Shown here: positions 6,001-61,560 of the stretch, piece after piece
Layout of the letters: each line of letters begins with the position of its first letter
How positions within the stretch are numbered: the first letter of the stretch is position 1
Assembly: GCA_036172245.1 (NCBI GenBank)
Contig: JAYWIR010000027.1
Coordinates: 2,790,001 to 2,854,000 of the forward strand
DNA: 64,000 nucleotides
Source of the DNA: Raillietiella orientalis
Taxonomy: Eukaryota
Direction: 5' to 3'
The notes under the pieces: generated by a model
Databases searched by the model: none
What the model was told of the DNA's origin: nothing
What the model saw: the letters and a program-made list of their open reading frames with translations, nothing else
Translations under genes and position numbers: made by a program

Positions 6001-9000
6001 TTCTCCCTCCTGGGAGTGACCCTCGGAGGCCGACGACGCTATTCAGCGCCCTTCCTCCGAGGGAGGACGGGAATCTCCCGGCGAACCGGTCGACACGCCG
6101 CTGCTTGTTCCAAGCGTGCTGGCATGGCCAGCATTTCCATAGAAGACTTCTCGGACGAACGCAGAGCGGGCGCCGCCGTTTCGCTGCTGCTGCCCCTGCT
6201 ACTGTAGCGTTACTTGTTTCCCTCCTATCTGCGCGTCTTTTCCTCCTCCCCCCCTCGGGCGCCCTCCCTCTTCTGCAGGAATGCGCTTGTCTTCGGGTGG
6301 TGGTAAGCGGACGACTTTCGTCGTCTTCCTCGGGGAGGCGTGCTCCTTTGCGGGCGAAGGGGGGGAGGAGGAGGGGGCCGCACCCTGTCTCGCCTTCCTC
6401 GTGCTGCTGCCGCTGCCGCCGACGCCACTCCTCGAGGAGGATGGTTAGGACGCGACCTTTTCTCGTACCTGCGCTGCTGATTCAAGCAGCTGCGACCCGG
6501 TCCGAGGAACTCACTCACTGCACGTTCGAAGTTACCCTGACCTGGTTCACCAGGACGGGGGTACCGGGATTTGCCAGCCATCGCCGTCGATGGCTGGCAA
6601 AGTCCAGCGTGGAACCGGCTGACGGGACGGACTGGCCCAAGCTCCGCTGGCGGAGGACGTTGGGGACCTCGCGTCCGAAACTCTCAGGAGCGCGGCAGTG
6701 GATCGGCATGCGCTGACGGGCATTTCTCCCGCTGCTTTTTCTTCGCCTTTCTTCTGCGTTCCATAGCTCTCTCGTCCGAAGGACTGGGAGAGAGGGGGGG
6801 GGGGGAGACAAGTTGACCGGGAATCCGGACTTCACATGCTGCGTGTATCATTCGTTGTTGCCCTGCATCCCTTTAGAGGGTTCTCTTCTTTGCCCTATCC
6901 GTAAGTGGTTTACGACACGGACGCTTGGTTCTGTTCCTCGAATTCCTCGGAAACTCACATAAGTGTACTGGCACCCCTGTGCCTTCCGAGGGCCTACCTA
7001 AAGGCCGCAGATAAGGAGGCGGAAGTGAGGACCTCATTCCATGGATCAGGGATGCCCCTCTGCCGCCAAGGAGAAAGCGAAGGCGGCGGCCGTGTGGTGT
7101 CGCCCGTCCTGCTGCTTTTTCCGGCTGGCTGCCGCGCTTTGCTCTTCGCCGACGATGGGCGGAAACCGCCCGGTGCGGCGGCGGCGGCATTTCGAATGAA
7201 AAGGGGGCCGCCGACTGCTGCCCCGCAGTTCCGCTGCGGCTTCTCTTCCCCTCTCGCTAGCGAAGCTTCCCGCAGCGACGCCGGAACGGGGTCGCGTGCC
7301 TCACGCATCCGGTCCGCCGCCTTTTCCGCCGAGACCCCTGACCGCAAGCAGCGCTGACGGCGATCCGCGATCCTCCGCGGGAGAACCGCTGCGGCGACCC
7401 TCGACAAACGCACGCACTTTCCGTAGATCCCCCTTCACCCACATCTGCCTGCCACCCTCCACGGCTCGCGTGGCCCCTAGCGACGAGGCGACGCGAGCAG
7501 CATCGTCACCTCGCGCGCACCTTTTCGTGCGTACCCTCCGGGCCTGTGGCTGCTCCTGCGCAAGGCAAGCAATACCACCACTACCCCTACCTCCCTCTCA
7601 TGGGTGTCTCCTGCCCAGCTCCTCACATTGTGCAGGGCACGGGAGCCGAGGCTGGTGCTACGCGTCTTTCTTTGCCTGAGGGTCGTTGATACCTGCTGCT
7701 TCCACGTAGGAGCGTTTCGCAGGTCGCAGGCGTCGTGGATCGAGAGCGAACGATGGACAGCCGCCCGTCCATCCGCTCCCACCTCCTCCCCCTTCTCTTC
7801 CTTTCGTGGAAAGCACGAAACGGGTCGAAGCCGGGGGCACCCGGTGTTGATTGGGAAACTAAGCAGCTGGGTCGCACCTTCCCGTGTCGGCGCGGTCGCC
7901 CAGCCTGAACGATTCCTCCCCCCCCCCCCTCACGCCCCCCATCCCCGCTCTTCAGCTGCGCTAGTAGTTCCTCCATGCACGCGTGGGTGCAGCTGCCTCG
8001 CGCCGCTGGAACGCAGGCTCCAGGAGCGTGTAATCGCCGGCCCGTTCGCACGCCGGATGCGTTGCGTGTGCAGCGACGTAGCGCGGGGTGCACCCGCGCC
8101 GTCTCCGGTACCGAATTTTCGAGCCCCTCCCCCTGTGCAGGTACCGAAGGCCACCCGGCGATGCGCTTCGGGGATTCCCGTGTGCTGTTTCCGGTTTGCA
8201 CGTTCTTGGCTCGCTCTTTCGTCTGCGGCTTCCGCTGCCGTCCTGCAAGCAGGCCGCTCGCTCCCCTATATCGCACCTTTTCCTCATCTCGTGGTCCTCG
8301 CTCTTCCCCCTCCGGATGTAGGAACCATGTGCCTCCAAAGAGCACATCTTCTTGCGACGTGCTTTTTATTTTTTCATCTTTCGTTTTTTTTTTTTGTTTT
8401 CCTCCCTTTTTGCCCGCGGTCTTCCTGCCTTGGATACCACCGCACCCACCGAACGCATTGTTGCGGAGATTGAAAAACCGCGAGCTCGCCGAAAAAATCA
8501 CAGGCCCGTCGTCATGGAGACGGCTCGCATGTGGCAGTCGTGTCACTCCGTTTTGTGCGCAGACGGACTGCGTCCGTCGCTTCCGAAGTGCTCAGTGAGG
8601 TTTCTCGGACTCCGTGTGGTCCATCGTGATGCGCGCACTTGTGCACGGCTTGTGGTCTCTTCCTCGGCGATGTGCGGCCTCTCGACGTGGAAACTTAATA
8701 CTTGCCGTCCGAGAAGTCGTGCTACGAAGGTATGTTGAAATTTTTGTTGGCATCGGAGTGCCTTTAGGTCTCCCTGGCAACCTTCCTTCTGTCATTCCAG
8801 GCATTTCTTGTTTTCTTCTTCTCCATCTTGTAGTTTCGATTCGTGTTTCAAATGCGACGGGCGGGCTTCTTTCTCTCTCTGGTAATCAAAAGGTCGGGTT
8901 TCCCGAAGATTCGACGCACTTCCGTTCCGTTTGGAGGGGTCGTTGCTGCTGTCGTTGTCCCCCCCCCCCCCCTTTTTTTCCAGCTTCACGAACGGGTTGC

Positions 9001-9967
9001 GACGAATGATTCGTAGAGATGATTCTCCGTTCCTTCTCCTCCACCCTTTTGTCCTTCCTCCCCTTGTTTCCTTCCCCCTCATGGTATCGCTGCATCCGAA
9101 CCATTGAATCAAAGGGGCTTCCTTGGAATATTCTGCCGCTCGTAGTTCTACTCCCGGCCTTGTGATTCTTGTTCATGGAGCATTTGCTACGGCTAGGAGA
9201 CAAGTGCAAGCTTTCGCAACTGCCGATGCTTAACCTCCCCCCCCCCTTCTCTCTTCTTCTTCTTCTTGCACTTGGAAAAGCCACGATGTACGAAATGACA
9301 GGTTTCAGAGTGTCGGAAGGCCGTTGTCACCGGTCGAAATTCTCCGATGGTTTCCCCTTCCCGTCACGAAGGCAGTTTCCGAAGAAGGTGTGTGCGCGGT
9401 TCTTTTCCCCCCTTTTTTGTCTTTTCGGAGACTCGTGCGCGAAGGTGGGCGCACTCTCTCTCGAAAGAGAGCTTGCGCGTCAGTGGGAGGGGGGGGGAGG
9501 AGTCTCTTAGCCTGTCGAGAGCTTTCGAGTAGGAAGGGAGGGGGGGGAGGTGCACGGGGCTGCTCAAACAAATCGATTCCTTTTTTCTGTATTTACGCGA
9601 GGATCATCATGTGCGCGCGCGCCATTTTTTCTTCCTTCCCCCCCCCCCCCGTTTTTGTTTTTGTTTCTGCACGTGCAGACACACCGCCGCTTCGTTGCGA
9701 AGCCGCGAAGCGTGCAGCGGGGATCGCCAAAGAGCCGCCGAGCTCTGCAACCCGAGTCTCATCGATCAGCAGCCGCAGCGACCCCATGGAACAACCCATG
9801 CCTTGGCGCGCGCGGTTGCGAACGGTCTCCCTGCTCTCGTATGCGACGAGACGAAGCGCTTGCTCCCCCACCTCCCTCTCACCCTGTGCAGCCTGCTCCG
9901 GCTTCCTTTACCATCCTCCAGCTGTGTCGTGGTTGCTGTGTTGCCGGGAAGCGCCCGTGCTCGCCCG

Positions 9968-9995
9968 CTCGCGCGCGCGCGCGCGCGCGCGCGTG
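9968..9995. repeat. (CG)n alternating tract
   Basis: cgcgcgcgcgcgcgcgcgcgcgcg followed by tgtg. Confidence 0.9.
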
Positions 9996-12900
9996 TGGTG
10001 CCATGTAGGGATGGAGCTCCAGTGACGGCATTTGCTGAACGCCACGTCTAGTTGAAAATTCTCTCTCTCACCCCTGCTTCCCTTCCACAACACCTAGCAA
10101 GCCTTTATATTTGGTTTTCTATTTTTTTTTTTTTTTTTTCCGAAAAAAAAAAAAAAAAAAAGAAAAGAAAAACACACATACAGCTAGCGACCTCCACACG
10201 TTCGTTTGCCTCTTGTTTATTTTTCTTTTTGAATGACGTTTGCCTCGGTCGGTAAGCTCATCTCATCATCTGCTCGCAGCGAAGCCAATCTTCGCCAACG
10301 CCTCCGCCGTGGTGACGGGAGGAGAGGAGGAGGACCGTCCTCCTCTCTTTCGGCGATTTCGGTGGTCCCCCCGTCGAATGGCGAAAGTGTTTGGGGAAAA
10401 AACCCACCGTTGCCGCTTCTGAAAGTCGGGGAGGACAACAGCGCAGGGGAAAATCCGACACGCGGTTCGATCGGCGGAAGGGGGGGGGGGGGAGACTACG
10501 ACAACAATGCTGGCGGCGGTTCCCTAGCAACTTCAGCTGCAAGCACGCGATTATGCTTGCACATGAAAAAAATGGGAGAGGAACCGTCAATAGCAGTTTG
10601 GTGTTTTTTCTTTTTCTGGCTGCTTCGGAATAAAGATTTCCTCAAAGGCAGCGCAGAGTGATTCCCGCAGGAGTAACCTTGATTTCCCCCATGCTCGGAG
10701 GAACGTGCCGGGAACGGTCACCGACACGGGGCATGATTGGGTCTTTACTCCGTTTCCTTACTCCTCACCACCTCCTCTATACCCCTCCATCCCCACTTCC
10801 CCTCCACCACAGCGCCAAGTGCCACTTCCTCTCCGAGAAGCACCTGCGGGAACGACCTGCCTCCGCCGCGAGCGCAGCGGGCGGTTCTCCGTCGAATGCG
10901 CGGATGTCACGTCACGTTCGGATCAGCTGATCGTTGTCGGAAAGCTCGTTGTCGCCTTGTGCGTTCCTCCTGGTCGCTCACCGCAGCCGTGCGGTGCCCG
11001 CAGCGGCAGGGGCCGTTTGGCGGATGAGGACGCGGGCGGCGAATGAGGTGGGCAGGCCCTCCCTCCGCCTCAGAGCCGCTCTCCGCGCCTCCATCCCTTT
11101 CCACGCTGGGTGCCAGCCTGCCGTCGTCCGTCGGCTATCGAGTCCGTTCGGGAGTAACGCTCGCCGCATGAAAGGTTCCCCCCCCCCGGATGGAGCTGCA
11201 CCGCGCGTCCTTCCTGGCCTCCGTCCACCCGGGAACCGGAGTGGTGTACCCGCGCACTCCAGTTCTTTTTCGGAGACGGGAGGGGGAGGGGGCACGAGCG
11301 AGCGGTGCCTCTCCGGAAGTCGTCGGCACGCCGTCTCCCCCCCCCCCAAATCGATTCGACGGAAGGAGGGTGGGAGGTTCTTCCTGCGCTGACCTTCGGG
11401 CGGGCAGTCATTTCCTGACCAGCAGGAGGCAGCTGCGAAGAGATCCCGGAGATGCGGGGCCGTCGAGAGAGGACGACGGTGACGTTGCGGCCCTGCGGTC
11501 GCCGGTGACGCCGCAGGCGGCTGGCCGCCCGCGGCAGTCCCCTTCTCCGTAGCAGGAGGGGCGGGTCCGGCGGCAGGCTTCCTCCTCCTCCTCCTCCTCC
11601 CCCGCCCGCCCGCTCCGCTGCCGTCGCGGCGGCGCAAGACGTCCGGCCGCCGCTATCGATTCCGCCCCGTAGCAACTACGCAGTTTTTCCCCCCGCTCGC
11701 GCGCGCCGGTACCTCGCGGCAGCGTTGCCCTTGGAGAAGGGGAGACAAGGCGGTTCCACCTGGAGACGATGCGCGACGGGAGAGAAGGGGGAGCAAGCCT
11801 TCCCTGCTTCCGTCCCCTCCGCCGTCTCTCGGGGCGGGGATGGAAAGAAGGGCGCCGTGCCCTCTTCGGAGCCACACGCCCCGCCGCCGCCGCATTTCAC
11901 GGAACACCTGCGTCTCATCAGGAAAGAAGGATCCCCTCTTATCCCCACCCCCCACCCACCCCCACCCATCGGTCCGTCGGCGGTGGCAGCGCTATTTAGG
12001 GGTAGCCGTGCGAATACAAATAGCCCGTCGTGCGCGCACGCGCGCCTGCGCTGCGGCAACTTCGGCCCCCTCGCCAACGCTTGGCGCGAAAAAGCCCCCC
12101 CCCCCTCCTCCACCCCTCCTTCTCCAGTTTTTCCGCGTGGCCTTGATCCCGTCAGCTGTTCCGTGCGAGCGCTGGTGACGTCAGCGTTCCAAGGCCAAGT
12201 TCGCGCGAGAACCTGGTAACGAACGGGCGCGCCGGATCGATACGCGAGGGCTGACGAAAGGAAGCGGGCGCGAAGGGAGGGGAGGGGGGCAAGGTAAGCA
12301 AAAGCAGGAATCGTCGCCTTTCCACTGCACCCCTACCCCCCCCCCCCTACCTTCCTCGTCCTCCTCTCAGCACGAGCGCGCGCTCCGCTCCGCTCCTTCC
12401 CCCCCCCCACCCTTTCCCCCTTCCTTCCTGTTTCCTTTCGGCACTTAGAGGGGGGGGGGAGGCGCGGAAGGACCGTCGTGTGTGTGCGCGTGCGCGCGCC
12501 CGCTTGCGGAGGTGTGGCCATAGCTTCTGCTGCTGCTCCTGACAATGATGATGACAGTGATGCGTGAGCGCGCGCGCGTTGCGCCTTTTTCCCTGCTCCT
12601 TTCCCTCGCCCTTTTCCCCTCAAGGACCCAAAAGGAAGAAGAAGGGGGGGGGGGAAGGAGGGGAGGAGGGTTCTTTCCGCTCCCGGCCCCACCCCAGCTT
12701 TCGATTCGCCGTCTCCTCCCTCTCTGTGTGTGTGTATGTGTAAGAGAGAGATGGAGGGGGGAGAGTTCACCCCTCCTCCTCCCCTCCCCCCCTTGGCGGC
12801 GACGGTGGTGGTGAATGAGCAGCGTACACGGAAACTGCGTCTTTGCCGCGGCGGCGGAGGAAGGCTGGTGGCGCCGGTCGGTCCCTGGCGGAGCGTTCGC

Positions 12901-13224
12901 GAAACAACCGCCGTGTTAAATGCGAAGTTTCCATCCGGAGCGTGTGCGCGGCGGCGGCTGCGGCGGCTGCTGCTGCTGAGGCGGCGGCGACGATGACGAC
13001 GAAGAGGATGAGGACGACCACGGAGCTCCGAGCCGAGCGACGAAGAGGACGAGGAGGAGGAGGAAGGGGGGGGGAGAGGTAGTGAAGAGACAGCGACCCG
13101 GTAAGGCGCGTAGGGCGGGGAACACGGGTGGGGGGAGGTAGGGCTGCGCTCTCCCTCCCCCCTCATTCTGGCGAGGAATGTCGGAGATTCCCACTTACCC
13201 TTGCGCTTCCTCTTGTGCTTGCAG

Positions 13225-16200
13225 TGAGCCGCCTCCACTGCGAGAGCGAGTCCTTCAAGATGGACCTCATCCTGGACGTCAACTCGCAACTGTACCCCGT
13301 GGAGCTGGGTGAGTTCCCCCTCCCCCCGCTGCCCCTCCCCCTCCACAACCCCGACGTCGCCGTTGCGCGCACCGCCGCCTCCAGGTGACAAGTTCCGGTT
13401 GGTGCTGGCGACCACCCTGCGCGAGGACGGTTACCCGGACAGCGGCGAGTGGAACCCCCTGGAGACCGGCCCGTCCCGCTCCGACAGCTTCGAGTACGTC
13501 ATGCACGGGAAGATCTACAGGATCGAGGGGGACGACGAGCGCTCCGGGGAGCCGACGTCCAGACTGTAAGTGACCGCCAGCCTTTCTCCTCCCTCGCTTC
13601 CTCCTCCTCCCTCCCACCCCACCCCTTCGTTCTCCTCCTCCTCCCCCGCCTCCCGGCCGAAGAGGGGCGGACGGCGGAGGCCGCGCGGCCCTGCGGGAGC
13701 CACAGCGAGTTCACACGGAGCGCTCTGGACCTGTGAACACAGCTGGTGGTATCTCACCGGTCCGCGGCGCCACGCTGCGGGCGGAAAGTGAACGACAGGC
13801 GGCGCGCTCGCCGGGCACACGGGGGGCACAGGCGGAGGAGGAGGCTCCTTTCCCCCCGCCCCCGCCCTTCGCAATGAGAGAGGGAGAGGAGGAGGACGGG
13901 GGGGGCAAAGGGAGAGAAGCCCTTCCCTCCCCTTCCCCCTCATTCCTGTCGGGGGGGCGCGCGCGGCACCACCAACCACCGTTTACAGTCCGCCGCCGCT
14001 CCCCCTCCTTTTGTCCTCCCGCGGGGCGAGGTCGCTCGGAAACCTCTCCTCCGCCTCCTCCGGTGGCGTTCCGCAGGAGGGCGGCGGCCATCCTGGCTGA
14101 CCAGACCCCTCCCTCCCTCCTCTTCCGGCCTTCCTTCCCTGCGGCCTTACCTCCCCACCCCCCTACCCCTTCCGTCGTGGCGACGCGTGCGCACCGCTCG
14201 CCCGGGCAGATGCTTCCTCCTGGAAGAGCCCGGAACCTCTCTTGGGTTGCTCCCCCTCCTCCTCCCGTTCTGGGTCCGTTCCAGGAGGCGGCGGCGGCTG
14301 GGCGTGAGGGACGAGCGAGCGAGCGCCAGGTGGCGGCAGCGGATATTCACCGGTTCAACGCTGCAGGACCCGCGCCCCCTGGCGGGTAGGACAGGAGCCT
14401 TGCCCCGCCCGAGGCCCCACTCGTGGCGTCTCCCTACCCCCGCCCGCTCCCGAGCCTTCGTGCGGACGGCTCCTTGCAGCTTCCGAGCACTCGCATCGCC
14501 ATCTTGGGACTCACCGAGGAACTGAGTCGCGCGCGGGGTAAATGACGTGAGCGTACGCGCGCTTTTGCTAGCTCCTCCTCTCCTTTCCTATCCCCTATCT
14601 TCCCGAATGGCGCGCGCGGCCTCGGGAGCTGCTGCCTTGCTTCTCCCCCCCCTGACCCCCCCGCTAGTGCTCCCGGGCTTTTCGTTGTCAGGTTAGCCGT
14701 AAGCAGCACTGCACGGGCCACGCTTCCTCCTCTTCTGCTTGCAACCCTCCCCCTCTCCCCCTCCTTTGACTGGGGTTCCCCGCAGAAGGGTAGGCGGAAC
14801 GAAGGGACGGGTCTCTGATCTCCCTACTTTCCCGTCCTTCGTTACGCGGCCGATCCCGCGATGCAGGAGGAAGAGGAGGTGAGGGCCTTCCGCGAGTGTT
14901 TTTCTGGTGACCAGCCGTCCCCTGACGAGAGACTAACCCGGCACGGGGGGTGGGGGAAGGGAGGGAAGGGGCAAGGAGATGGGAGGGCTCAGGGAAGGAG
15001 CGCAGCCGCCCGGTTGGATCACCTGCTCGCACCGATGATGACGTCAGTGCAGACTCTGCATCGTTGGAGCTCGCGCAGGCTGCGGATCCTTCGCGCCGGG
15101 CGAGGCGCCACGTGCGTCGTTCCTGTGCAGCGTTTCTTTCCTCTCCTCCTCCTCCTCCCGGAAATAATTCGGGGAGTGGGGGGAGGCGAAAACGTACGGA
15201 AAGTTCCCGGCGGAAGCTGCCGCTGCTTCTCCCAGCGCCCGAATGGAAAGGCGAGAGGGAAGGGGGGGGGGAGGGAAGGGGGGGAGGAGTTGGTGCCACA
15301 GTGCGAGGCGGAACATTCAGCTGCGAAGAGGTCACGAGGCCTCCTCGTTCTTTGCGCATTTCCGTGTATTCGGCAGCAGAGCCAGGCAGCAGGAGCAGCA
15401 GGGACCTCCTCCCTCATCCTCAACCCCCACCCCTCCCTCCACGAGCGTTCGCGGCATCCGAGAAGACTGGAGGATCCTGCGCGCCGAACCGGCGCTCCCT
15501 TGCCGTCGCGACTTTCCCTGCCTCCAAGAGATGGCCGGTCGCCGGGCAGCGCCGGCGCCGGGTAGCCCAGGCAACCGCCGGGATCTTCCCAGGAGGAGCA
15601 GCGCCCACGGAGAACGCCGCCTCCCTTCCTTTTGGTTGTTGTTGTTGTTTCACCCCCCTCTCTCCCGCCGCACATCGTGCGTTTCTCTCGCACCAATCTC
15701 CCTCCCACTGCGGGTGCGCGGGCCGCGGACCCAAAGATTTCCTCCTGACTGCATGCGTACGTCGCTCCCGTTTCTCCGCGCCCACCTTTTCCCCCTGGCC
15801 AATTTGTGATCAGGTTGCTGCTGCTGCTGCTCTTTGGCTTCGTGAAAACGTTGCGAGTTCTGCGGGTCGTCTTGCCCGAAACCCACGGACGGAAGGAAAA
15901 GGAAGCAATGTAGGCGGCGGTCACGCAGCCGCCGCCTCTGCCGTGACGTAAAAAAAAAAGTGACCAAAGTGTGTGCGCCTCACGGAAGGGAGCAGTAGGG
16001 AGCGGCGGCCTGCCGCGCTTCCCTTGTCCCAAAATCGAAGTGCTTTGTGTGGAGTATTTCAGTGGTGGTAGCACCATCCGTGTCTTCCCAGTGGGTGATC
16101 CACCCCTTTCTGTGCGAGGTGATCGGGCAACCTCGCCTCTGAAGAGGTGATACACGGCGAGAGTTCACCAAGTGGAGGCAAAATGCCGAAGGGCAGTGCG

Positions 16201-16769
16201 CGTACCTGGAGGTGTCCTGTGATGTGAAGAATTGCTTCTTTTTTTTTACTTGTGGGTCAAGTCTGCTCGATGGCAGCCGTAGTCACCAGCTGAAACCCAG
16301 CAGTTACCCTCTGCTTTGAGCGTCAACCTTTCAGTTTGCGCCTGCCAGCTGCAGTCACTACTTTTTGCATGTTTGTGATTTTTCTTGCTTTCCTCCTTTC
16401 TTTTCTTCCCTTCCTCTCCCCCTCTTCCTCCTCCAACTCCCCCCCCCCTTCCCCGAAAGTGACAGACTACTGATCGGAAGGTGTCTATATCAGTGCCCCT
16501 GGCTGGCAGTGTGGTTAGCTGGTTGTTAGATAAGCCGCCTACAACCGCTATCTGCACAGCCGGCGTGTGACGCTGGTTCTCTACAATATTAGCATTTCCT
16601 AATCTTCTGGTAATCAAATTGTCGGTCTTTATCTCATTATGTATGTTGCAGGGCGGCCTACGTGTCGTTTGGAGGTCTTTTAATGCGTCTGCAAGGGGAT
16701 GCAAACAACGTGCACGGCTTCGAGGTAGACAGCCACATATATTTGCTGATGAAAAAATTGGCCTTCTAA
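13225..16769 (+). CDS. POLR2H: RNA polymerase I/II/III shared subunit RPABC3/RPB8, 5'-partial. Exons 13225-13308, 13385-13565, 16652-16769
   Basis: Splicing at GT-AG sites gives (V)[43 protein letters not shown]...[15 protein letters not shown]...[40 protein letters not shown], near-identical to metazoan RPB8; splice phases are compatible. The N-terminal ~24 aa exon was not found. Confidence 0.97.
13690..13765 (+). ncRNA. mir-317: microRNA precursor mir-317 (mature 3p ~13734-13756), in RPB8 intron
   Basis: TGAACACAGCTGGTGGTATCTCA matches arthropod miR-317-3p; partly complementary 5' arm CGGGAGCCACAGCGAGTTCACA at 13694-13715 forms the hairpin. Confidence 0.93.
16498..16567 (+). ncRNA. mir-34: microRNA precursor mir-34 (mature 5p 16504-16526), in RPB8 intron
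   Basis: TGGCAGTGTGGTTAGCTGGTTGT matches arthropod miR-34-5p; star arm ACAACCGCTATCTGCACAGCCGGC at 16541-16564. Confidence 0.95.
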
Positions 16770-16771
16770 TC

Positions 16772-16777
16772 AATAAA
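16772..16777 (+). terminator. polyadenylation signal of RPB8
   Basis: AATAAA 2 nt after the RPB8 TAA, followed by a T-rich tract. Confidence 0.55.
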
Positions 16778-16837
16778 CCGCACATCGAGTTGGAAGCTTT
16801 TTTTCATTATTTTTATTATTATTACCTAGCTACATGC

Positions 16838-17401
16838 TCAGAGGCGCTCTTTGATCCGTGTGTGCGCACTCTCAAAATACTGGAGACGAGTAAGGGCAGC
16901 CTGAGCGCCATCTAGATCCTGGCGCTGGAAACAATCGGCGATCTGCAGCTCCATGTCCGCGATGGCTTTCGTGCATGCATCACGCAGTACTTCCAGCTCC
17001 TTCTCCGTCTGCGCCTCTTCCAGCGCTTCCCTCAGTTCCAGCATCTCCAGAAGAAACTCTGCATCCTCCCCTGATGCTTTCAGATAGGGATCTTTCCCTT
17101 GAAGTTCCAGCAAATGAAAGCCTCTTTGCAACGGGTTGCGCAACACTGTGTATGCCTGATTTACAAGCGTGCACATCATGTGTGCCTCATGCTGTTGCTG
17201 TACATCACCACCCTTCCTATCAGGATGAAACTCCTGCTGGAGCTGATGATGACGCTTTTTGAGCTGTCCTTCATCAACATGAAAACTACGTGCTAAACCA
17301 AATAAATCAAAATAGTCAACGATCCTTGAGGAAGGGCACAGAAAACGCAAACAAAGAACAGGCTGTGGGATGGATAACACCGTGCTACTCATACCACCCA
17401 T
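16838..17401 (-). CDS. HSCB: Fe-S cluster co-chaperone HscB/HSC20 (J-domain plus C-terminal helical domain); true 5' end uncertain
   Basis: DYFDLFGL...LQQEFHPDR (HPD motif)...VNQAYTVLRNPLQRG...EFLLEMLELREALEEA...LTRLQYF. In-frame ATGs at 17401 and 17392; possible 3' splice site at 17326-17325. Confidence 0.92.
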   Translation of the reverse strand: MGGMSSTVLSIPQPVLCLRFLCPSSRIVDYFDLFGLARSFHVDEGQLKKRHHQLQQEFHPDRKGGDVQQQHEAHMMCTLVNQAYTVLRNPLQRGFHLLELQGKDPYLKASGEDAEFLLEMLELREALEEAQTEKELEVLRDACTKAIADMELQIADCFQRQDLDGAQAALTRLQYFESAHTRIKERL

Positions 17402-17906
17402 TTTGTGTGAGTTCCATAAGAAAGCAAATCCCCAGTATTTTTGTTGCTTATCTTCACCTGCAAATATGCAAGACTCTTTCCTTGCTTCAGGAGCTTGGAA
17501 TCAATGCACAACTCATCACCAAGTACAGCTTTTTGTAGAAACCTATTACCCAATCTCACTGTCATAATGGAGGGATGACTTACGACACATTCAGATCAAC
17601 TGATACTCCAGGATTATTTTGTTCTGTGGTGGCTAGACCAAGAGAAGATACCACATCAATCAGACTTGCTGTGAAGCCTCCATGCAGACTTCCACGCAAA
17701 TTCAGGTGCTCTTTGCACACCTTCAAATGGGCTGTGCAGTTCCCTTGCCCAGCAGAAACCAAATGCAGCTAAAATACAGTGTCAGTGAGCACATGGCTAG
17801 CCACCACATTCCTTACGCCTTTCATAACATGACAAAAGCCACCATGGTCTACCATATGTTTCACAGTCTGCTGCAGTAGATCCACAATGGCTCTTTCATT
17901 TCCCAT
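17389..17906 (-). CDS. ACOT13: Acyl-CoA thioesterase 13 (hotdog fold). Exons 17906-17817, 17768-17584, 17542-17389
   Basis: Spliced: MGNERAIVDLLQQTVKHMVDHGGFCHVMKG/LHLVSAGQG...EHLNLRGSLHGGFTASLIDVVSS...PGVSVDLNVS/FLQKAVLGDELCIDSKLLKQGKSLAYLQVKISNKNTGDLLSYGTHTKWVV*. Has N..G.LHGG, GVSVD and G.HTK motifs; GT-AG introns of 48 and 41 nt. Confidence 0.93.
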
Positions 17907-20900
17907 AGCAACCACACCTAGACAGTCCATAGTCATTGAAATGCATTACATACAAAAGATGGGCCAAAGCTATCCCAGAAGGAAACTAGAATCTACTGAG
18001 CTTACTTCAACTTTTGCTTAGGAACATAGCTACTTTATCTTTTGAAAACTCTTGTTGAAGTGGGAGCAATGCTTGAGACTTCCAAGTATACAGTTGCAAC
18101 AAAGGGAAATACGACAAAGAAACAATCAATATGGAAAGAAAGAAATAATTTCCACCTGTCGAATACCTTTCCTGATTTCAATATTGGTCAGCTCCTACCT
18201 TGAAATGCTCACATGCGATTTAAGATAAGTGCTTCTGAAATACCCTGACCTAGCACAGAACAAAAATAGCCTCAATACAGAAGAACAGCACGACATTCTG
18301 ATTATTTACTTTGTGCAGAACGACACATATCCAAAGACCAAATGCAACCATGAGCACAATAATGAATGAAACGAATTGGTATAGGGTGTACCACTAGAAA
18401 AGTACAAAAAATCACTGCTCCAGGCCCAAGCAAGCAAACTTGACAAAGTGTGATAGGTACCCAAAGGATGATTCAGTTGACATGCTCCCACATTTTTTGT
18501 GCACGCAGAAACGCACAGCGATACACCTTATGGAACAATTTCAAAGAGAAACTGATCACTTGGAAGCGTGCCATGAAGTTCGCCTGCTCGCTAGATACGA
18601 ACTCTCCAGAAACTCGGGAGCCAACGCACAACTACATTATTTGCAGATGAAATCTTTGCACACAACGCTTTAGGCAAAAATACCGGGTGCAAAATCCACC
18701 ATACTGCAAGTGCACACATACCAAACCGTGACTTCGTGTCCTTAGATCGGTGGAAACAAGCTCTAAACATGCGAAACGAAGAAAAACAACCTCAAAACCC
18801 ACGAGGTTTAAGGGTTACTTACGATCTGCACTTACCCTGCCACAAATTATCACGAAGACGTAGTTGCTATCGGCGCCTCTTCGAAAATGTACGACTTTTT
18901 CTCTCTTTTTTTTTCCTTTTTTTCCTCGTGACAACACGGAAGTGCGCAGCAACAAATGTTGCCTGGGCAGTGGCAAATGCTCGAACACACAACACGGGCG
19001 GACATGGCGCACCCAACTGGGAAAAGATGTCCAAGAGAAAAAAAAAAAAGCCCCAGGCTTTTCGCACACGGCGCACTCACACTTCAAACACACTGTTTTT
19101 CATCGACGTGTTCGGTTATGATTTACACTTAAGCTGCCCGTGTTTCCTGTGCCAAATGCTGCTTCAAGTAACCCGCCTTCTCTGAAGAGTACAACTCACA
19201 CGGTTGCACTGCTTGTGGATCGTTTGCAACGAAGAACCACATCACGGGCATCCAGATGACACGAAAACGATGTCTCTGACCACCATGGCCAAGGAATAAT
19301 CACCTGGGGCAAACACGCGCCAACGAACATCAATTCGATTGTAAGCAGTGTTGTGACCCAACAGGGCAAAAAACCTTTTTCCCTAATGACTCCGTTTCTG
19401 TTGATGAATGGCCGCGAGTCTCGATCACGGTCAGTTCATTCAAATAGCTAGGTAAATAACCTTTCACCTATTACGTTCACTTGTTCCTTTCCCTACTGCC
19501 ATCGGGCACCAAACGCTTTCTTGGCGCCGTGCCTCCCTTGCTGGAAAGGTCGTGCAAAGCAGAAAAGAAAAATGACAGAAATTCGCAGGAAGATTCCTAA
19601 GCAGAGACGAGCAAAAAGCAACAAGTGTACGAACAAGAAAACTTAGACAGTGCTGGAGGCTCAGACCCAAAAACTGATGAAGAATGTCAGCAAGACAAAA
19701 GCACTCACTCTTCATGAGGAAACGACAAAAGCAAAAACAAAAGGGAGTAGATAGAGTCTTACTATTGATTTCCTAAATGTGATATCAGCGTTACAATCAC
19801 ATATCGAAACGCTCCATAAGATTCAAGTAGTTCATTCGACTGTCTGCGTCTTTGATTACTGCAAGTGAGCGTTCCTCCTACATTTCAGGCTATGATCGTT
19901 GGAGTCCAGTAATTAACAACTTGGTGAAATCATCCTTTCACCTACACATCTCCCAAACTCTCCAGACAGTATTCTCAATGAGTTTTTTTGCTCATCTAGG
20001 ATAATTTTTTTTGTGAGTGTCTTGAATTCACACGGTCTTAACTAGCAATCCCATTGTGAGGAATATGCCAGATGAAAAATAAGAACCTGTTATAGATTGC
20101 TGTTCCTCGGCCACGAAGCCTCAAAATAGATTCGCAACTTGGGGACGAGAACCTTTTGCACGAAACGATATCCTTCTGCAAAGTTGTAGTGTTATTTCTT
20201 CGTTTTCATTCCCAAATGCCCCAAGTTCCTTGACGTGGCGTTTCCAGGGAAATTGAAATTTTCCAGGGAATGCTTAGATTTGTCCCAAAATGAATCAAGC
20301 GAAAACTGGAAATCTTTGGTTCATAGTGCGAGCAGTTCTTTGCAGTCTTTCCATCTCTCTTTCCTTCCGACTGTGTGAGTTTCCACGTGTGTATGCAAAT
20401 ACATATAATGCATCTCTGTTATCATGAATGTTAATTTGGTTCAACGATTCACCCCTCTCTAGTTAGTTTATAGATCGCTTGCTAGTATACAGGTCATGTC
20501 CTCACTGTGCGTGAGGCATCATTTTGATTCCATTTATTCCTTTATTTCACTATTTTTTTTTTTTTTTTACGTGCGTCATTCTCGATTCTTTCATTCTTTA
20601 ATCTCAGGTTCCGATCGATTTTAGTGCTTTTAAACTTTGACCTGAAAAAGCTGGAGTGAAACTTGAGAAAATACAATTTCGATCGAGTAAGGAATCGATC
20701 GAGTTCTTCCAGAGAATGGAAAATGCAATCTACATGCTCTCTATTCATTTTCCTTACTTTCTCTACTTATTTTCTTGGTTCAAGAGCAATGAACTCGAAA
20801 GCCAGGATGAGGCTCGATTCATTTAGCAATATTATTCAAACTACTGCACAATAACTTCCAAACTTCTACTGTTCGAACTTTATGCACATTGTACATAACG

Positions 20901-23900
20901 TGAAAGAATGACGGTTTGAACTAAAAACACTTGAATGCATTAGCCGAAACAAACGCATTTATTCGCTTAACTGCTAAATGAACGAAAAAGTTCTTAATTT
21001 TGATGGAAGGCAGTGAGGATTTGTCGGGATTAGCCCGCGAACACCTCTCCAGGGGAAAACGATGGTGCGCTTAGCAACGTACCTTTATGGTGATTCAAGC
21101 CAAAAATTCCGGATCGATTGAGGTATGGAACTCGCGGCTGCTCTTTCACTTTGATTTGATGAACACCGTGAAGAAGTTGTTACTCCTAACAGACAAAGGC
21201 TGAAGGCAACACTATTTAAGGAATGCAAACTGGCTTGTACATAAGAACGGTGCTGAAGTGAATGATCAAAGAACTGGAATACTGCGATTCAGGAAATATG
21301 ATTTCAAAATACGGGAGCCAAAAAGTACATCGAGACATCGTGGCTTTGTTGCAAGTTTATTCTTAAGAGAATGGAAAAGCGTTTATCATAAAAAATTACA
21401 CGTATAGACATGTAATTTATCTTTTCCATGTACCTGGAGAACTTATTCCAACTTCAGTCTTCCCAAAGCAAGTGTTTCGTCTTGTACAGATCTGGCATTA
21501 TTGAAGCACTGCATTCTACACATGCTTTGCCTTCAATGGTTCAAACGGTCGCTTGGTGTAGCAGTATGGCAGCATCAGGTTGCCATACTGTTACACAGCG
21601 AGTCTTCCTGTGTGTTTCCATCAAATCTCTCGCCTCTGCTTGTCTTCGTCACGAGAGCACTGTTCGCACTCGCATGAAGAGCAGCTACCGGAATCCCACA
21701 TGGTCAAAGTTAACCCATCGATACTCGCTTGAGGTTTGAACCTCCTCAGTTTTCGAGTCTCACCCTCTTGCCTTCCCCCCCGAACTGGCGAATCTGGGTC
21801 TCCTCAACAGTCATTATGAATCTTTGAAAATCCTGTGTCATTCCCGTGTCGTTCCATATTTAGCACACGGACGTGTTTAAGCATCAGTTCGTATTCACAC
21901 TGTTGAATCCAAGATTGTTTTTGAAAGATCGAGTTTGCTGATCCACAACTGACACAATTCCAAAGGTTTTCAAGCGATGGTAGCATCTTGGTAGTCCTTG
22001 GTCGTGGCTGAGCAGGTTCGGTGTGTGATCTTGGTATCTGAGGACGTCGTCCCTGGACAATCTTAATCCTACGTGGGTGTTCGTCCATTTCTAGGCGGCT
22101 TACCCAGCTAATGGCATTTTCGAGCTTAAAACAACTCTGCCTGTATTGTGCCAAAATTCTCCTACAAGATCTCTGCGGAAGACACCCCTTCGCAGTACAA
22201 AGGAAAGAAGAAAGAAAAATCGCATCGACTCTTTGTTCTTCCTTGGTGTAATTTGATCGGGAGCATGTCATCTTTTGCGTGCGCACGCGAAGAAAAAAAA
22301 AAAAAAAACACTGCAAAGTACTGGCTTTTATACACAAGACAAATGAGTCCAGGGTCGAAGCGAAAAAACTTAAAACATGTACTTTGCTTGCTTGTCTATG
22401 CAAGCAAAGTACATGGATCACCTGTATCCTTATTTTTAGACATCCTCTCTTAGAGACGCATAAACTGAAAAGATGGATGGAAATGAAGGCTGCAATTTCG
22501 GTTCCAAACCACACTGTTGAGAATGTAAAAATCCTGCTTTGCCTAAGCTTGGAAAATGGCCACATGACACTCCATCTTCATTGCTTTCCCGCGAAACTTG
22601 AATCGGACATTCAGACGAAACCCATGCAATTTTTGCTTCATCTCACTTTCCGTCACCCAATCATTCCAATTTATGCACCTCCTGCTTTCTAGAAGCTACT
22701 TGAATTTGTGATTTCCCCCCCCCTTCCACAAGTGCTGCGACCGCGATCTAACTTTATGGAAAGAAACTGAGGCATCTACTCGAAAAATAGAAGTAATGCT
22801 GCAGGAAAGCTTCAAGTGCAAGCCGGATGAAGTTCCACAGAGCTTCGAGCCAACTCTGTCATTTTTTTTGGACTGCAACGCTTTATAATTTATTAGTTTC
22901 AAGGAGACTGAATTCTCCCCTATGTTCGATTATTACTTTTCGATGACGGACATCGACTTCCATCGGTCCAGGCCAATGCAAGAGACGGTTGTCATGTGAT
23001 AGTGTGAAGCACACGAGACACAATTCTAAATCATAGGGTTACAAATGTGCAAGGGGAAAGAATGTGCCTTTTTTTTCTTTTCTTTTTCAATAAGGATACT
23101 ACTGATACACACACCGACAGAGAGACAGGTTTTCCCATGCAATGCATAGCACACACACAGTCGGCAGAGAACGAATCAAAGTTCCACGATTGGATTAAGC
23201 TCGTTAGAAATGCTTAGAGCAAAAAAATTGTTCCAAACTCAAGGGCACTTCACGAATGCCGTTTCACCAAATCGGCAAAATTTCGTACGCAGTCGTTCAA
23301 GACAAAATGAAGAAATGAACTGGCAGATGTTGAGGGCCGAGAGCAGACCTAGGGCCCATACAATGCATCTCCGTGGTCTTCGATTTTGCGATCCCTTTTT
23401 CTTTTTCTTTTTTCCGTGCCCATGACTGCTCACGAGCTAAGTGTTTACTTTGGGTACATTAGTGTTTGGGCTTCGGTGCATGACAAACACCTTTATGAGT
23501 CCTTGTTAACCTAGTTTGAATACCAAAGTTCCTTCAAGGTAAACCTGTTGAGGCCAAGTAGCCAATGATGTGCATAAACATGAGATTAAATTTGAATTGC
23601 AATGTAACCCCCTTCAAACTTCCCTGTGAAACGTGCCATCCATAGAACAATCTGATTACATTCTGTGTGGTGTCCACATCACATTCAGTAAAGCTTACAG
23701 ACTATTTAAAACTTGAGGAAAGTTGGTATGCAATATGGATGTTTCCAACATGAGCACTTCGAACACTTCTGTTCCCACTGTAGATGGTTCCCCTGTATGA
23801 AAGCTTGACAGAAAATTTAAGAATTCATGTTCCGAAGTAACACATATTTGCACACGGTAATCGGATTGTTTCGATTACAACGTGCAATTTATTAAGATTA

Positions 23901-24213
23901 AAAAAGAAATGCACAACGAAATATGGACCCTGGGTCTAAGCTTTCAAATACTGATCATGAGTGGACTGATGTAATAAGGAATGCAATAAATAGACTAACG
24001 GATACTTAAAATACAAATCTGATATTCTTATTAAAAGCATGCATCCGACAAGAAGCAAATTCGCTTTTCCTTCTATGGGATATGCAGTGGGCTACTATGA
24101 TGGTCTGCTGTGCTGGTTTACTATCAAGATCTCTGTACTTCCATATGATGAAATTCGTGCCCATACTTTAACAAAATACAAATACCTTGCATTTTATTTC
24201 CTCATGTGCACCA

Positions 24214-27200
24214 TCACATGAAATCATCGGAATCATAACCATCCTGGTTGGAGATCATCTTTTCTGGATCCATGAGGCTGGAATAGCTTCTACATTTTAT
24301 TGAGAACCTGTTATCAATAAATGTAGCAGAACCTCATTTCAGCCTCTTCTTTTTTCCTCTTGTCTTCCTTCCTCTGCTGCTTTTTCTGTTCTTTGAGCAG
24401 TTGCTTAGCCAACAGCCTCTCCTCACAGTCTCTGTGCATGCGCTCTCCTGCCAGATCTACTGACCGCTCCTGACGTGTTCGATTAAGCCTGTTGATTATT
24501 TCATTGCGTCTTCCCACTCCACGTATGACTTTCACCTGATAAGAAAGTAGAAGTCTTCTTAGATAAGAAATATAACCTCTTTTTGATTATGGAAACCAAC
24601 TTGACCAACATCCATGTCTCCAGTTTTCTTCAAGTTGGTCCACTTAGTGTATACAACATCCACAGCATCCATTTTATGTCCAGAAATACTATTAGCCTTC
24701 ACCAATTGTGCTGCATCTTCCAACACAGCAACTGGGATTTCTTCCAAATTTTGATTCTGAAATAGTGGCAACTCTATCCATTTTTCAGCATTCTAAATGA
24801 GTTGGAATAATTGTTAAAAGCCAAATAAAGAGTTTAGTCACAATGACAGGTCAAAGCACATTACATTGAAAGAAAAACCACAGATGCTTCATTTTAACTA
24901 CCATCTGTATACAGATGCCTTAAACTGAACATCCTATCTACCAAAATCTCTGTGAAAATACTCAATATGTCACAGCAAATTATACACATACACTGTTGTG
25001 GAATTTACAAGTTAGCCAATTGGCATTCATTTTGTCACACTCACCTATTATTCCTTACCAGTGTTCCCAAGCATGTGATAGTAATTTATAAGCAATAATT
25101 AGCTGAGGAGAATCTTTTCAAAAAATACCCACGTACTAAAAATCGCATATACTTGAGCATTGAAAATATGTAACAACAACAACAAAAAAAAAACTCCAAA
25201 ATCCATGCTGATTCCCATGGCATCTGAGAATATGGTTGTAGTTGCATGATTACACTCATGTTGTGTCTTCAACTTATACAAGTACATCCCTGTGCAAACT
25301 TTTCCTGTTTTCTTATTCTTCAACTAAATTGATTGCAATTCCAGAAGAGGCACTTGAGCTCCCTTCCTTTCCATCACAAACATACAATACTAGACTGCAG
25401 GACTCCTCTGAAGGAAGCAGCCCAAATCCAACAACTGGCAGTGAATACCCTACTGTATTTACCTGCAATCTTAAAAAATCTAAGCATACATAGTTGGGAT
25501 AACAGATTCTAATCTAACTGTGTTGCCCTAATAATGATCAATCCTTTTTGGTTATTTTCAAGGAAAGTAATTTATGGAAACCAAAGAAATGATGATTTCA
25601 ATATCTGGTCTCCTATTTGTCAAGAAGAATGGCTTACCAATCAACAAGGGAGTTGATTCAACATCTAATATTAAACCATATAGATTTTTTCAACTTGATA
25701 ACCTAGTAAAATTTTGTAATCAAATATATGATCACAATTAAAAGAAGCAAATGAAATCAAATGTTTTGAACCAAGTTTATGGCAAGCAAAAATGAAAATA
25801 CAATCAAAAGCCACCCAAGTTCACAAAGAAACAAACTCACAGCTGTCACTTCAGAAAACAGTCACAGACTCCATTCACTTATGCTCAATCACTTGACCCA
25901 ACTTCCTTTATAAATAAAATCTATCAACTTTTTACTGGAAAAATAAACTGGGAATACATAACTTACACCCTCCCAGGTAGAAAAAAAGAAATTCTGATCA
26001 TGCTTTGCAAACTACACATGAGTTCAGAATTTTTTAAAAATACTTTGAAAATTCATTATTAAGGTGCTTTTCAATGATCAGCTGCAAATAATTCTTTCTA
26101 TTAATTGCCCTCACAAGCACACAAATGCAAATTACGTAGCCATCTAAAATACTGCAGAATGCAACTGTAACTTACTAAGTAGGTTCTCATAGAAGATTAA
26201 AACAAAAAAAACTGTTATTGCAGCACATAAGTTTATTTACATACAAGAGTCATGGAACACCTACCTTTGGTAATCTGATATACACATGTGCTGAGGAAAC
26301 CTTGTCAACATGAAACCACACATCCTCAGGCCAGCCCCATCTAAGCAGCTCTTCATCTACACAAAATGATAAAATGAACTAAATGCATGCACACGTGATC
26401 AAGATACAAGATTTTCTCCACAAAAAATACAGGACTCAAGCAATCCACAAATATGTTTGTGATATGCTTTTTAGCCATGACCCTCCATTAAATCTGAAAG
26501 GCATAATAAAGGAAACGTGACCAACATTATAATAAAAGCAATTCATTCAAAAACAGAATGGGAAAACCCTGTTTTTTTACAATATGAAAGAAATCCGCAT
26601 AGATAATCAAAAATACATATAGGTAAATAATCTAATTATTTTTAAAAATGTAACTAAACTGAAATGACAATACGTGTCTTGAAATTTGGTGGAAAAAGAA
26701 AAAAAAAAGTGCTATCAGTGGTTTGTTTATAACAATCTGCAACATACCATGATTTAATTTTTATTGTTACATCGAGTTAAGCATAATTTACATAAACATC
26801 TTGCTACTCTAAACACACATGCACATTTGGATCTTACTGATTTATCAGGTCAAAATACAGAATTTTAAATCAGTTATAATTTCGATTAATGCACAACAGT
26901 GTAGTCTACATAACGTACAATTCGTCACATAATTACGTTATACCAGCCTCTTGTTGGCAACTACAATTGTCCTGTATTGTGAACTACATCAGGATGATGC
27001 ATTATTAGAGGGAGAGTTTTGAGAACCTCAATTTGCTTGATTTTCAGAATAAAAATGGAATCCCTTTCATCAGATGCTCTTAAGGGAAAATTCAGATATT
27101 TTAAATTGCTTTAAATTTAACGAAAAGGATAAAATTAAATTCATCTGAATAATTTGAACATAATCACTGGAACAGTAAAACCATATGATGTTTACCACTT

Positions 27201-27351
27201 GAAACATCTGGTATTCGAAGATTGGCATAAACTTACTTTCATGTTTATCTGCTCCAACGAAAAGAGTCACGGGAGGATCAACAACTGAAATTTGGTTTTT
27301 GATATGCCAGTAAGTTAGGGTCTTACCATTGCTAGTAAAGAAATACACCAT
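24214..27351 (-). CDS. CCDC25: Coiled-coil domain-containing protein 25 (NFACT-R domain). Exons 27351-27327, 27284-27237, 26356-26265, 24756-24577, 24535-24333, 24289-24214
   Basis: Spliced: [55 protein letters not shown]...[11 protein letters not shown]...[23 protein letters not shown]...[25 protein letters not shown]. All junctions GT-AG and in phase; AATAAA on minus strand at ~24193-24198. Confidence 0.96.
25325..25560. repeat. Dispersed repeat copy 1 (in CCDC25 intron)
   Basis: Visibly aligns with 28465-28690: gcaggactc.tctga.ggaagcagcc, caactggcagtgaat, ctgtattt, gataacagattc, gccct.ataatgatc. Confidence 0.8.
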
Positions 27352-28464
27352 TGGAAACTTCTAGAGAATGTATATTATTTAGAACTGGAATGAATTTTAA
27401 TTGCGATGCCTGTTGAGGATATTTGCTTTCCAGATGTTGACCTCACATGTGTTAAGGTAATGGAAAAAATACCTCACAGTCTCATTAAATGATTTCAGCA
27501 GCCTCTACGCACAAAACTGACAGCTTCCTCGTGCATTTTCTAAAGGTAAAGATTTTGCACACCGCTGGAAGAGAAGTTTTAAAATGAAATTCCTTTTAAC
27601 AATGAAATGATTACTTTAATACACTGGCAATTGTTGAATCACTAATGTACACATTCCCACATGCCACATGGAGATCTTACTAAGCGAATATTATCCCATT
27701 TTGTCACTGGGAAAGTTTCGACACACCAAAATCACAAAATGGCATTACGTGATTGAGAGAAAAATGGTTAATCGAATTTATACACTGTGAAAAATCTCCC
27801 TCTTCCGTGTCTTTTTTCCGTACCTCTTTTCGGCAACAAATAATAGATCACCTAATATCTAAAAAGACATAAAGAAGAGGATAGGTAGACAGTGCCCCGG
27901 AGAATCTTCAGATACATTTATAATCACATTTGTATCCCTGGCAACAGGCAGTTGATCCACATGAGAATCTATCAGCAAAGAGCAAATTATCTGAAGACTT
28001 CCAGAGGCTATAAAGGAATTCAGATGCTTCCCGAGCAGATAAATGCTAAGATTTTTCCGCATTTGTAGATACGGCTGTTCGTTCAGTTCACCTGTAGTAT
28101 GGACTCATCGAAAACCTTTTTTTTTTTCTTTTCCCCCCATTCTATTCTTTACGTCCGTTTCCACGTGGCGAAAATGATGCAGACTTTGTAAACTGGATAG
28201 GAGATTTATATTATCAATACGAGGGAAGCCTGGCCGTTTTTGCAAATAGAAGGGAGACGTGCTTACTCGAATGGCAATTCCTTTTCCTGAGAGGTTCCTG
28301 AAAGGAAAACGTTCCCTTTCGATGTAACACTAGCATTCGCTCTGTTTTTGCATCCCCTGTTGATAAATTCAATTTTACATTTTCCTTATACTCATCATAT
28401 GTTCAGTCGAATTCATTTGTGAATGCACATCTCAGTTTCGTGTCTCCATTTGCTGAAGAAACGA

Positions 28465-28690
28465 AAATGAATTGCAGCGTAGATTCCTGCCTGCAGTCCA
28501 GAAGAGGTTCCAATTCTGGACCGCAGGACTCTTCTGATGGAAGCAGCCTGAATGCAGCAACTGGCAGTGAATGCCCAACTGTATTTGCCACGAAATCTTG
28601 GCGGAATCAAAGCATCCAGAGTTGAGATAACAGATTCGAGTCCAACTGTGATGCCCTGATAATGATCTGTCCCTTTGGGTTTTTCCTTGG
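28465..28690. repeat. Dispersed repeat copy 2 (upstream of CCDC25)
   Basis: Same orientation as, and similar to, 25325-25560. Confidence 0.8.
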
Positions 28691-31639: not shown

Positions 31640-32360
31640 ATCGGGGTGCAAGATCTCGTGCAAAAGGCTGAGCAGACCTTTGCGCCGCTTGCCTGGCCGA
31701 GACCTCTGACACCTCGCAACCGACCGGCTCCGTCCGATTTCATCCCAGCCCGACAAAGACCGGAAAGGAAGCCAGGAAAAAGTCGGCTGAAAATCAGCAA
31801 GCTACCGTGTCCAGAGAATCCTCCGTGGGTGTCTTTTTGCTGGATGAGAATCCGCGCGGCAGTGGTGGGGGTGGTGGCAGTCCACGCGTGTGGCAGCCGC
31901 GGCGAACGCGCGTTGCCCTGCTCTGCGCGCGGGAGCTTCTGCCGGGCGCCACACCGCCGGTGGCGACAGCAGCGGCGTCCAGTGGGACAACGCGTGGAGC
32001 GTAGCGGGGTTGCGCGCGCGTCGCGGGCCGTGAGGCTGCTAGTAAGCAACCGGGTGCTCAGGTGACCGCAGTGGTGTGCCCTCGAGTTTCCTCCCTTCTC
32101 TGTCGCCCTTTGAACGAGGAAATTCGTTCCCCTCCCCCCCCCTCCCCCTTTCCCTTCCTTACCTTTGTTTTTGTTTTCCCTTGTGCATGCATGTTTGTGG
32201 ACACGCGCCCTGCCGCGGCTTCGCTTGGCCGTGCGTCTCGCGTGCCACTCGCGTTTCCCGAGATCTGCCGAGTGGTCGGTCGTTTCTACGGCGACGAGCG
32301 TCCGTCGGCAAAGTTTCGTGGGGGGGCAAGAGGGGTGGTCCAGTGGTCTTCTGGTAGAAA
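31640..32360. promoter_or_regulatory. Local GC/CpG-rich island, candidate MPND promoter or 5' UTR exon
   Basis: Abrupt CpG-rich segment inside AT-rich DNA ~600 nt upstream of the MPND ATG, with donor-like GTAAGC (~32042) and CAG|GTGACC (~32061). Confidence 0.4.

Positions 32361-59982: not shown

Positions 59983-61560
<1,578 letters not shown>

Follow-up and report, generated by a model that had tools for sequence, protein, structure and literature searches.

ACOT13/THEM2, the gene of a hotdog acyl-CoA thioesterase, and the gene of HscB/HSC20, a co-chaperone of iron-sulfur (Fe-S) cluster biogenesis, lie head to tail in the window analysed here, a stretch of 64,000 nucleotides (nt) of Raillietiella orientalis (contig JAYWIR010000027.1, positions 2,790,001 to 2,854,000), and the stop codon of the first gene overlaps the start codon of the second. 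This is a juxtaposition of two real, selected genes and not a chance overlap of open reading frames (ORFs). ACOT13 and HscB probably form one head-to-tail transcription unit and share their 3' end, which gives a structurally dicistronic RNA. Concerning the HscB protein, we lean, tentatively and short of calling it probable, towards translation chiefly from a shorter RNA that would start inside ACOT13. All positions are those of the window; both genes are on the minus strand and are read from higher to lower numbers.

Overlap of the ACOT13 and HscB genes

The overlap occupies 13 nt of the minus strand (17389..17401). It is organized as follows: an ATG at 17401-17399, another ATG at 17392-17390, and the ACOT13 stop codon TGA at 17391-17389, the last two being interlocked in the tetranucleotide ATGA (17392-17389). 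Both ATGs open the HscB frame. The upstream one lies 10 nt before the ACOT13 stop, in the context CACAAAATGG, with an A at -3 and a G at +4. Just past the TGA the third frame contains a TAG (17387-17385), and all frames other than that of HscB are closed at most 16 nt after ATG 17401. A stretch near the junction, ATGAGTAG, holds a stop in each of the two non-HscB frames. The original prediction, made from the sequence alone, was that the ACOT13 TGA overlaps ATG 17392 and that ATG 17401 opens an intact HscB ORF, and every coordinate of it was confirmed. The absence of intergenic space is equally borne out; the accompanying statement that no room is left for a promoter is an interpretation, since a promoter could sit within ACOT13.

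RNA data consist of contigs from one metatranscriptome run (X1, word share 0.05), whose source is a relative 93-97% identical to the window and up to 100% identical on an exon of the neighbouring RPB8 gene; five of these contigs fall on 16000-20000. One of them (record 4) crosses the junction and shows three A instead of four in the run 17401-17404 of the minus strand; with a contig depth of 3.4, this missing base may be an error. If the deletion is real, ACOT13 of the relative ends at the TAG 17387-17385, and the overlap is kept while the exact ATGA is lost.

The ACOT13 gene (17906-17389) has three exons and 142 codons, beginning with the ATG at 17906 in a strong context (G at -3, G at +4). 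Exon 1 (17817..17906) contains 30 codons and ends in phase 0. Intron 1 (17769..17816, 48 nt, GT..AG) is removed in one X1 contig (record 5), which joins 17817 to exon 2. Exon 2 (17584..17768) encodes the hotdog core and ends with two bases of a partial codon. The following intron (17543..17583, 41 nt, GT..AG) is predicted, being outside the RNA contig cover; its splice is the sole one that preserves both the frame and the alignment with THEM2. The coding part of exon 3 covers 17389..17542. Scanned as separate pieces, exons 2 and 3 each match Pfam 4HBT, the hotdog fold family, and against solved structures they align respectively with THEM2 residues 29-88 (E 3.8e-13) and 91-137 of 140 (E 5.4e-09). 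The protein ends in ...THTKWVV, directly before the TGA. Since the exon 3 alignment reaches THEM2 residue 137 of 140, this stop is at the natural C-terminus, and therefore no additional ACOT13 exon is expected. Seven of the ten listed differences between ACOT13 and the relative are synonymous. Two in-frame ATGs are present 24 and 30 nt 5' of the ACOT13 ATG (17930-17936, minus strand) and would add at most 10 residues; the contig of the relative begins at 17920, so the true start among these upstream in-frame ATGs is not settled.

Architecture and selection of the HscB ORF

The HscB ORF (16838..17401) has 187 codons followed by a TGA (16840-16838), is intronless, and is in the -1 frame relative to ACOT13. 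Both domains of the HscB/HSC20 Fe-S co-chaperones are present: a J domain (residues 29-93, 17123..17317; Pfam DnaJ, 3.6e-07) with its HPD motif at residues 59-61, and the three-helix C-terminal domain (residues 112-184, 16850..17068), which matches Pfam HSCB_C (PF07743) from position 1 to 74 of 74 with E 2.6e-15. Homology starts at residue 25-28. The N-terminal 28 residues comprise no acidic residue, two Arg and six Ser/Thr, a composition compatible with a short mitochondrial presequence.

Among solved structures human HSCB is the best relative of the ORF (1.3e-22), with E. coli HscB and yeast Jac1 ranking behind it, and the alignment with the human protein extends up to residue 201. Among 1.8 billion proteins the closest representatives reach no more than 27-43% identity, and the two best named matches belong to the unicellular holozoans Syssomonas and Sphaeroforma. 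An N-terminal CxxC...CxxC domain is found in 56 of the 81 HscB representatives of at least 200 residues and in none of the 68 shorter ones. This zinc-binding domain of the eukaryotic long form is absent from the ORF, and no CxxC...CxxC peptide was found in the six frames between 10 and 32 kb of the window. When the 81 long representatives were used in a tblastn search, all matches outside the ORF were at chance level, the best (E 0.003) lying in a low-complexity GC-rich stretch. The ORF thus resembles the short HscB/Jac1-type co-chaperones in having a J domain and HSCB_C behind a short N-terminal peptide, and yeast Jac1 and E. coli HscB align with it across its whole body. By sequence, however, it is nearest to the eukaryotic long forms. 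Because its nearest matches are human HSCB, among solved structures, and the Syssomonas and Sphaeroforma proteins, it looks like a long-form HscB that has lost its zinc finger. No fused or longer HscB-related protein was found in the search, which is a weak negative.

Comparison with the relative yielded 26 listed differences in HscB, 13 synonymous and 13 non-synonymous. For 92.7 synonymous and 333.3 non-synonymous sites this corresponds to a pN/pS of 0.28 (p 0.0014), and if all seven unlisted differences of record 4 are counted as non-synonymous, the worst case, p becomes 0.017. Between 16940 and 17400 the HscB frame of the relative contains neither stop nor frameshift. Judged from this pN/pS the ORF is under purifying selection, and a decaying pseudogene appears unlikely. 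A scan of metagenomes for DNA of further relatives returned a single locus, whose J domain is 30% identical and which is too distant for use.

A probable common 3' end and RNA over the junction

The first canonical polyadenylation (poly(A)) signal past both stop codons is the AATAAA at 16812..16817 of the minus strand, 21 nt after the HscB stop. Scanning the minus strand from 18100 to 16600 for AATAAA and ATTAAA gave two sites, at 16817 and 16684, and none between 18100 and 16817. Fifteen weaker hexamers were also located; only one of them, AAAAAG at 17260, is inside the HscB ORF. The scan thus upholds the earlier observation that AATAAA is missing between the two ORFs and present after HscB. 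An A-rich run lies past the signal, 3' of HscB. The neighbouring RPB8 gene has its AATAAA 3 nt past its stop codon and an X1 contig ends 8 nt beyond this hexamer, which indicates that canonical signals and short 3' untranslated regions (UTRs) are used in this region. As ACOT13 lacks a poly(A) signal ahead of HscB, read-through of its transcripts across HscB is to be expected.

Each of the five X1 contigs falls on predicted exons; records 1, 2 and 5 encounter an intron, and in all three it is spliced out. In records 1 and 2, an 18-nt loose end before 16652 matches 13548-13565 exactly, so that the 3.1-kb RPB8 intron has been spliced out. Because every contig meeting an intron is spliced, record 4 can be taken as derived from RNA. 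This contig of 490 nt, with 33 differences and one gap, is colinear with the window from 16940 to 17429; it therefore indicates that, in the relative, an RNA exists which carries HscB together with overlapping ACOT13 coding sequence. It is unspliced over the stop/start junction, beyond which it extends 40 nt into the ACOT13 coding exon. The X1 contigs leave 17430-17607 and 16786-16939 uncovered and cannot show RNA ends; none joins ACOT13 exons 1-2 to HscB, the junction being bridged by these 40 nt only.

Since the two genes have one poly(A) signal in common, the most economical interpretation is a dicistronic ACOT13-HscB mRNA. The proposal that one mRNA encodes both proteins is accordingly strengthened on the side of the RNA, by this signal and by the contig over the junction, and weakened on the side of the translation mechanism. 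None of the papers searched connects ACOT13 and HSCB as a bicistron.

Possible routes to the HscB protein

Two routes from one mRNA to HscB had been put forward, leaky scanning and termination-reinitiation. Fourteen ATGs precede the HscB start when counted from 17951, ten of them after the ACOT13 start, which is about the density expected by chance, with no depletion. Leaky scanning is disfavoured because ribosomes would have to pass the strong ACOT13 start and then these ten ATGs before reaching 17401.

Termination-reinitiation has the right geometry but is not positively supported as the mechanism. In the form that we consider rather unlikely, the ACOT13-HscB mRNA would be the only transcript, some 40S subunits would reinitiate at ATG 17392 or 17401 after terminating at TGA 17391-17389, and HscB would be made in a low, fixed ratio to ACOT13. 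The 4-nt ATGA overlap with a further ATG of strong context 9 nt upstream, the closure of both other frames within 16 nt of ATG 17401, the selection on the HscB ORF, the lack of a poly(A) signal between the ORFs and the colinear RNA contig all fit such a design, and precedents have been described in the human RPP14/HsHTD2 mRNA (PMC4705651) and in the cellular overlapping downstream ORFs reached via reinitiation that are cited in PMC10275272. Against this stands the length of the upstream ORF, 142 codons, whereas viral reinitiation after long ORFs with AUGA overlaps requires a structured upstream element complementary to 18S rRNA, termed TURBS (PMC10275272). Neither trace of a comparable tethering element was found upstream of the junction: UGGGA, which we take as the motif of such elements, is absent from the minus strand between 17389 and 17900, and the predicted fold of the 121 nt ahead of the junction is no more stable than that of shuffled sequences (z -0.10). 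The shorter A-run of the relative, if the deletion is real, would also cost the exact ATGA. That HscB has no promoter of its own and is made solely by ribosomes restarting at AUG(A) after the full 142-codon ACOT13, free of any TURBS-like element, is to be doubted.

The reading that we tentatively prefer separates transcription from translation. ACOT13 transcripts would read through HscB as far as the shared AATAAA, while most HscB protein would not come from ribosomes that have just finished ACOT13. Instead, a second, shorter RNA with its 5' end inside ACOT13, upstream of 17429, would encode most of it. This 5' end could be supplied by a putative internal promoter, or by a spliced leader if the lineage trans-splices, and on such an RNA ordinary scanning would reach ATG 17401, with its favourable A at -3 and G at +4, or ATG 17392. 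The resulting short HscB would follow the Jac1/bacterial architecture, with a presequence-like N-terminus, a J domain and a C domain, and no zinc finger. Translation from a shorter RNA draws support from what speaks against a ribosomal hand-over, namely the long upstream ORF, the ten further ATGs, and the missing UGGGA and fold.

Several points weigh against the shorter RNA. The X1 contigs, which cannot show starts, gave no 5' end for a transcript of HscB alone, and the promoter within ACOT13 is putative only. Rfam gave no match to a spliced-leader RNA gene in the window, and no leader was seen on the X1 contigs. If an RNA began anywhere from 17542 to 17430, it would include the out-of-frame ATG 17417, and with a start upstream of 17516 it would include the ATG there too. 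The tight ATGA, the third-frame TAG and the strong context of ATG 17401 have the look of a coupled design. Moreover, animals do possess dicistronic genes whose second ORF is present only on the dicistronic RNA, as in Drosophila Adh/Adhr.

Other explanations question the HscB start or the HscB gene itself. An acceptor-like site at 17324..17350 of the minus strand consists of a pyrimidine-rich tract and an AG at 17326-17325, with 17324 as first exon base, and its phase fits the end of ACOT13 exon 2. It is thus conceivable, if improbable, that HscB begins in at least one upstream exon, joined to 17324 by splicing, and that translation does not in fact start at ATG 17401 or 17392. In one version ACOT13 would be nested within the first intron of HscB; in the other, ACOT13 exons 1-2 would be alternatively spliced to 17324, giving an in-frame fusion of 253 residues. 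Besides the strength of the tract and the matching phase, this explanation would account for HscB homology starting right at the site and for the missing CxxC...CxxC, so frequent in the long eukaryote-type proteins, and 6.6 kb free of any recognised minus-strand exon are available 5' of ACOT13. The RNA contig of the relative, however, is unspliced at 17324 and carries 105 nt upstream of it, which contradicts, at least in the relative, an HscB always spliced there, an outcome that had been named as refuting the dicistronic proposal. The search for a CxxC...CxxC peptide and the chance-level tblastn matches described above give no sign of such an exon either, the frame is open upstream of the site with two ATGs in usable context, and no CTRAY-like branch point was found in the 50 nt before it. 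The segment 17324-17399 shows a single listed difference from the relative, a synonymous one at 17333.

An origin of HscB by retroposition into the 3' end of ACOT13 is compatible with its being intronless, with the absent zinc finger and with the A-rich run past the poly(A) signal. No convincing target-site duplication that would back it was found among nine families of short repeats. One of these families, D5, a 13-nt repeat and the only one flanking HscB, was ruled out as a target-site duplication, its 5' copy being native ACOT13 coding sequence that aligns with THEM2. A stronger form of this explanation, which we regard as decidedly improbable, makes HscB a young 5'-truncated retrocopy carried as a passenger transcript in the ACOT13 3' UTR, while a zinc-finger HSCB elsewhere does the work. 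The contrast between an intronless HscB and intron-bearing ACOT13 and RPB8, the A-rich run, the absent zinc finger and the low identity to any representative (27-43%) would all suit a retrocopy. They are opposed by the pN/pS of 0.28 together with a frame undamaged in the relative from 16940 to 17400, by the intact HPD motif and full-length HSCB_C, and by the failure to find a duplicated target site. Hardly credible, finally, is an ACOT13-HscB fusion of about 325 residues, produced by ribosomes that slip into the -1 frame at A AAA (17404-17401). The HscB frame is indeed -1 relative to ACOT13 and open from 17500, and, with an A in front of the Lys codon AAA, the slip of one tRNA would read directly into ATG GGT; yet no canonical X XXY YYZ heptamer and no stable structure, downstream or upstream, were found there, and the search returned no longer HscB-related proteins, though this last is weak evidence.

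Comparison with known two-protein genes

The ACOT13-HscB pair belongs with the overlapping or dicistronic nuclear gene pairs. In the human RPP14/HsHTD2 mRNA, a bicistronic nuclear mRNA, the "3' UTR" contains a second, full-length ORF, which encodes a mitochondrial protein (PMC4705651). It resembles the present pair in that one partner is a hotdog-fold enzyme of acyl thioesters and both ORFs exceed 100 codons. It differs in that the hotdog protein is downstream and its partner is an RNase P subunit, and an ATGA overlap is not mentioned in the cited passages of PMC4705651. The mechanism of translation is unsettled in that case too, and here the translation of the second ORF is a prediction.

MOCS2, cited in PMC5817353, is another animal mRNA with two long ORFs. 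Its mechanism is likewise unsettled. As here, overlapping frames of one animal mRNA encode two conserved proteins. Unlike ACOT13 and HscB, whose functional link is speculative, MOCS2A and MOCS2B are two subunits of the same enzyme. MOCS2 is reportedly read via leaky scanning, and the ten intervening ATGs argue against the same at the present locus.

The termination-reinitiation of caliciviruses and influenza B at AUGA or UAAUG (PMC10275272) also shares with this locus a stop/start overlap after a long ORF and the expectation of less downstream protein. The present gene differs from these TURBS systems in being cellular and in having neither UGGGA nor an unusual fold.

If HscB is made from the ACOT13 mRNA, the locus would offer a cellular example, of a rare kind, in which ribosomes reinitiate efficiently past a long ORF; the two proteins involved are well known and conserved, and the 13-nt junction can readily be tested in reporters. 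Whether cellular mRNAs have TURBS-like elements is a question raised in PMC10275272, for which ACOT13-HscB would then be a natural test case. Restarting on the ACOT13 mRNA would fix the ratio of ACOT13 to HscB and so couple acyl-thioester metabolism to Fe-S cluster delivery. More speculatively, it would relate Fe-S cluster biogenesis to a hotdog acyl-CoA thioesterase. Such a hypothetical link would echo both the connection of acyl-ACP, LYR proteins and HSC20 and the RPP14/HTD2 bicistron. If a nested promoter is at work instead, ACOT13 and HscB are ordinary overlapping tandem genes, and the main point is an HscB with neither zinc finger nor introns.

Genomic surroundings

On the plus strand the RPB8/POLR2H gene runs towards HscB, and the two stop codons are 68 nt apart. 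The last exon of RPB8 (16652..16769) encodes a peptide identical at 34 of 37 positions to mammalian RPABC3, and is followed by an AATAAA at 16772; the stop is at 16767-16769. Within the window the gene was followed over 13400-13565 and 16652-16777 (plus strand), the penultimate exon ending at 13565 and the last intron spanning 13566-16651. ACOT13, HscB and RPB8 form a very tight corner of an otherwise non-compact genome. Around 16 kb the GC content drops from about 0.66 to 0.48. The last RPB8 intron spans this sharp fall, its upstream exon being very rich in GC at third codon positions (GC3) and its last exon not. The flanks, 1-16000 and 40000-64000, have a GC content of 0.55-0.68 and long low-complexity ORFs in all six frames, against 0.33-0.52 for the block of 16-40 kb with recognisable genes, a contrast unusual inside 64 kb.

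The first minus-strand piece to match Pfam on the 5' side of ACOT13 is an NFACT-R_1 exon (24562-24792, E 8e-14), which was the only match among the 150 ORFs scanned from 17950 to 32060. An MPND-like gene with two large exons lies at 32935-34374 (plus strand); it matches RAMA weakly and contains a JAB/MPN domain. A Protein Atlas search with the MPND exon returned the JAB family only, and a separate search for longer related proteins gave none, a weak negative. The RPB8 exon and this RAMA+JAB gene make an animal-like lineage likely. At 35028-36392 (minus strand) a 454-codon open frame that matches no Pfam family shows an internal duplication, the motif ...KTYDYNMDVQEYYYKPHVD... occurring twice. 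Finally, Pfam ankyrin repeats are encoded at 60847-61539 (plus strand) in a GC-rich multi-exon gene, near which putative PH and ArfGAP parts were recognized by eye.

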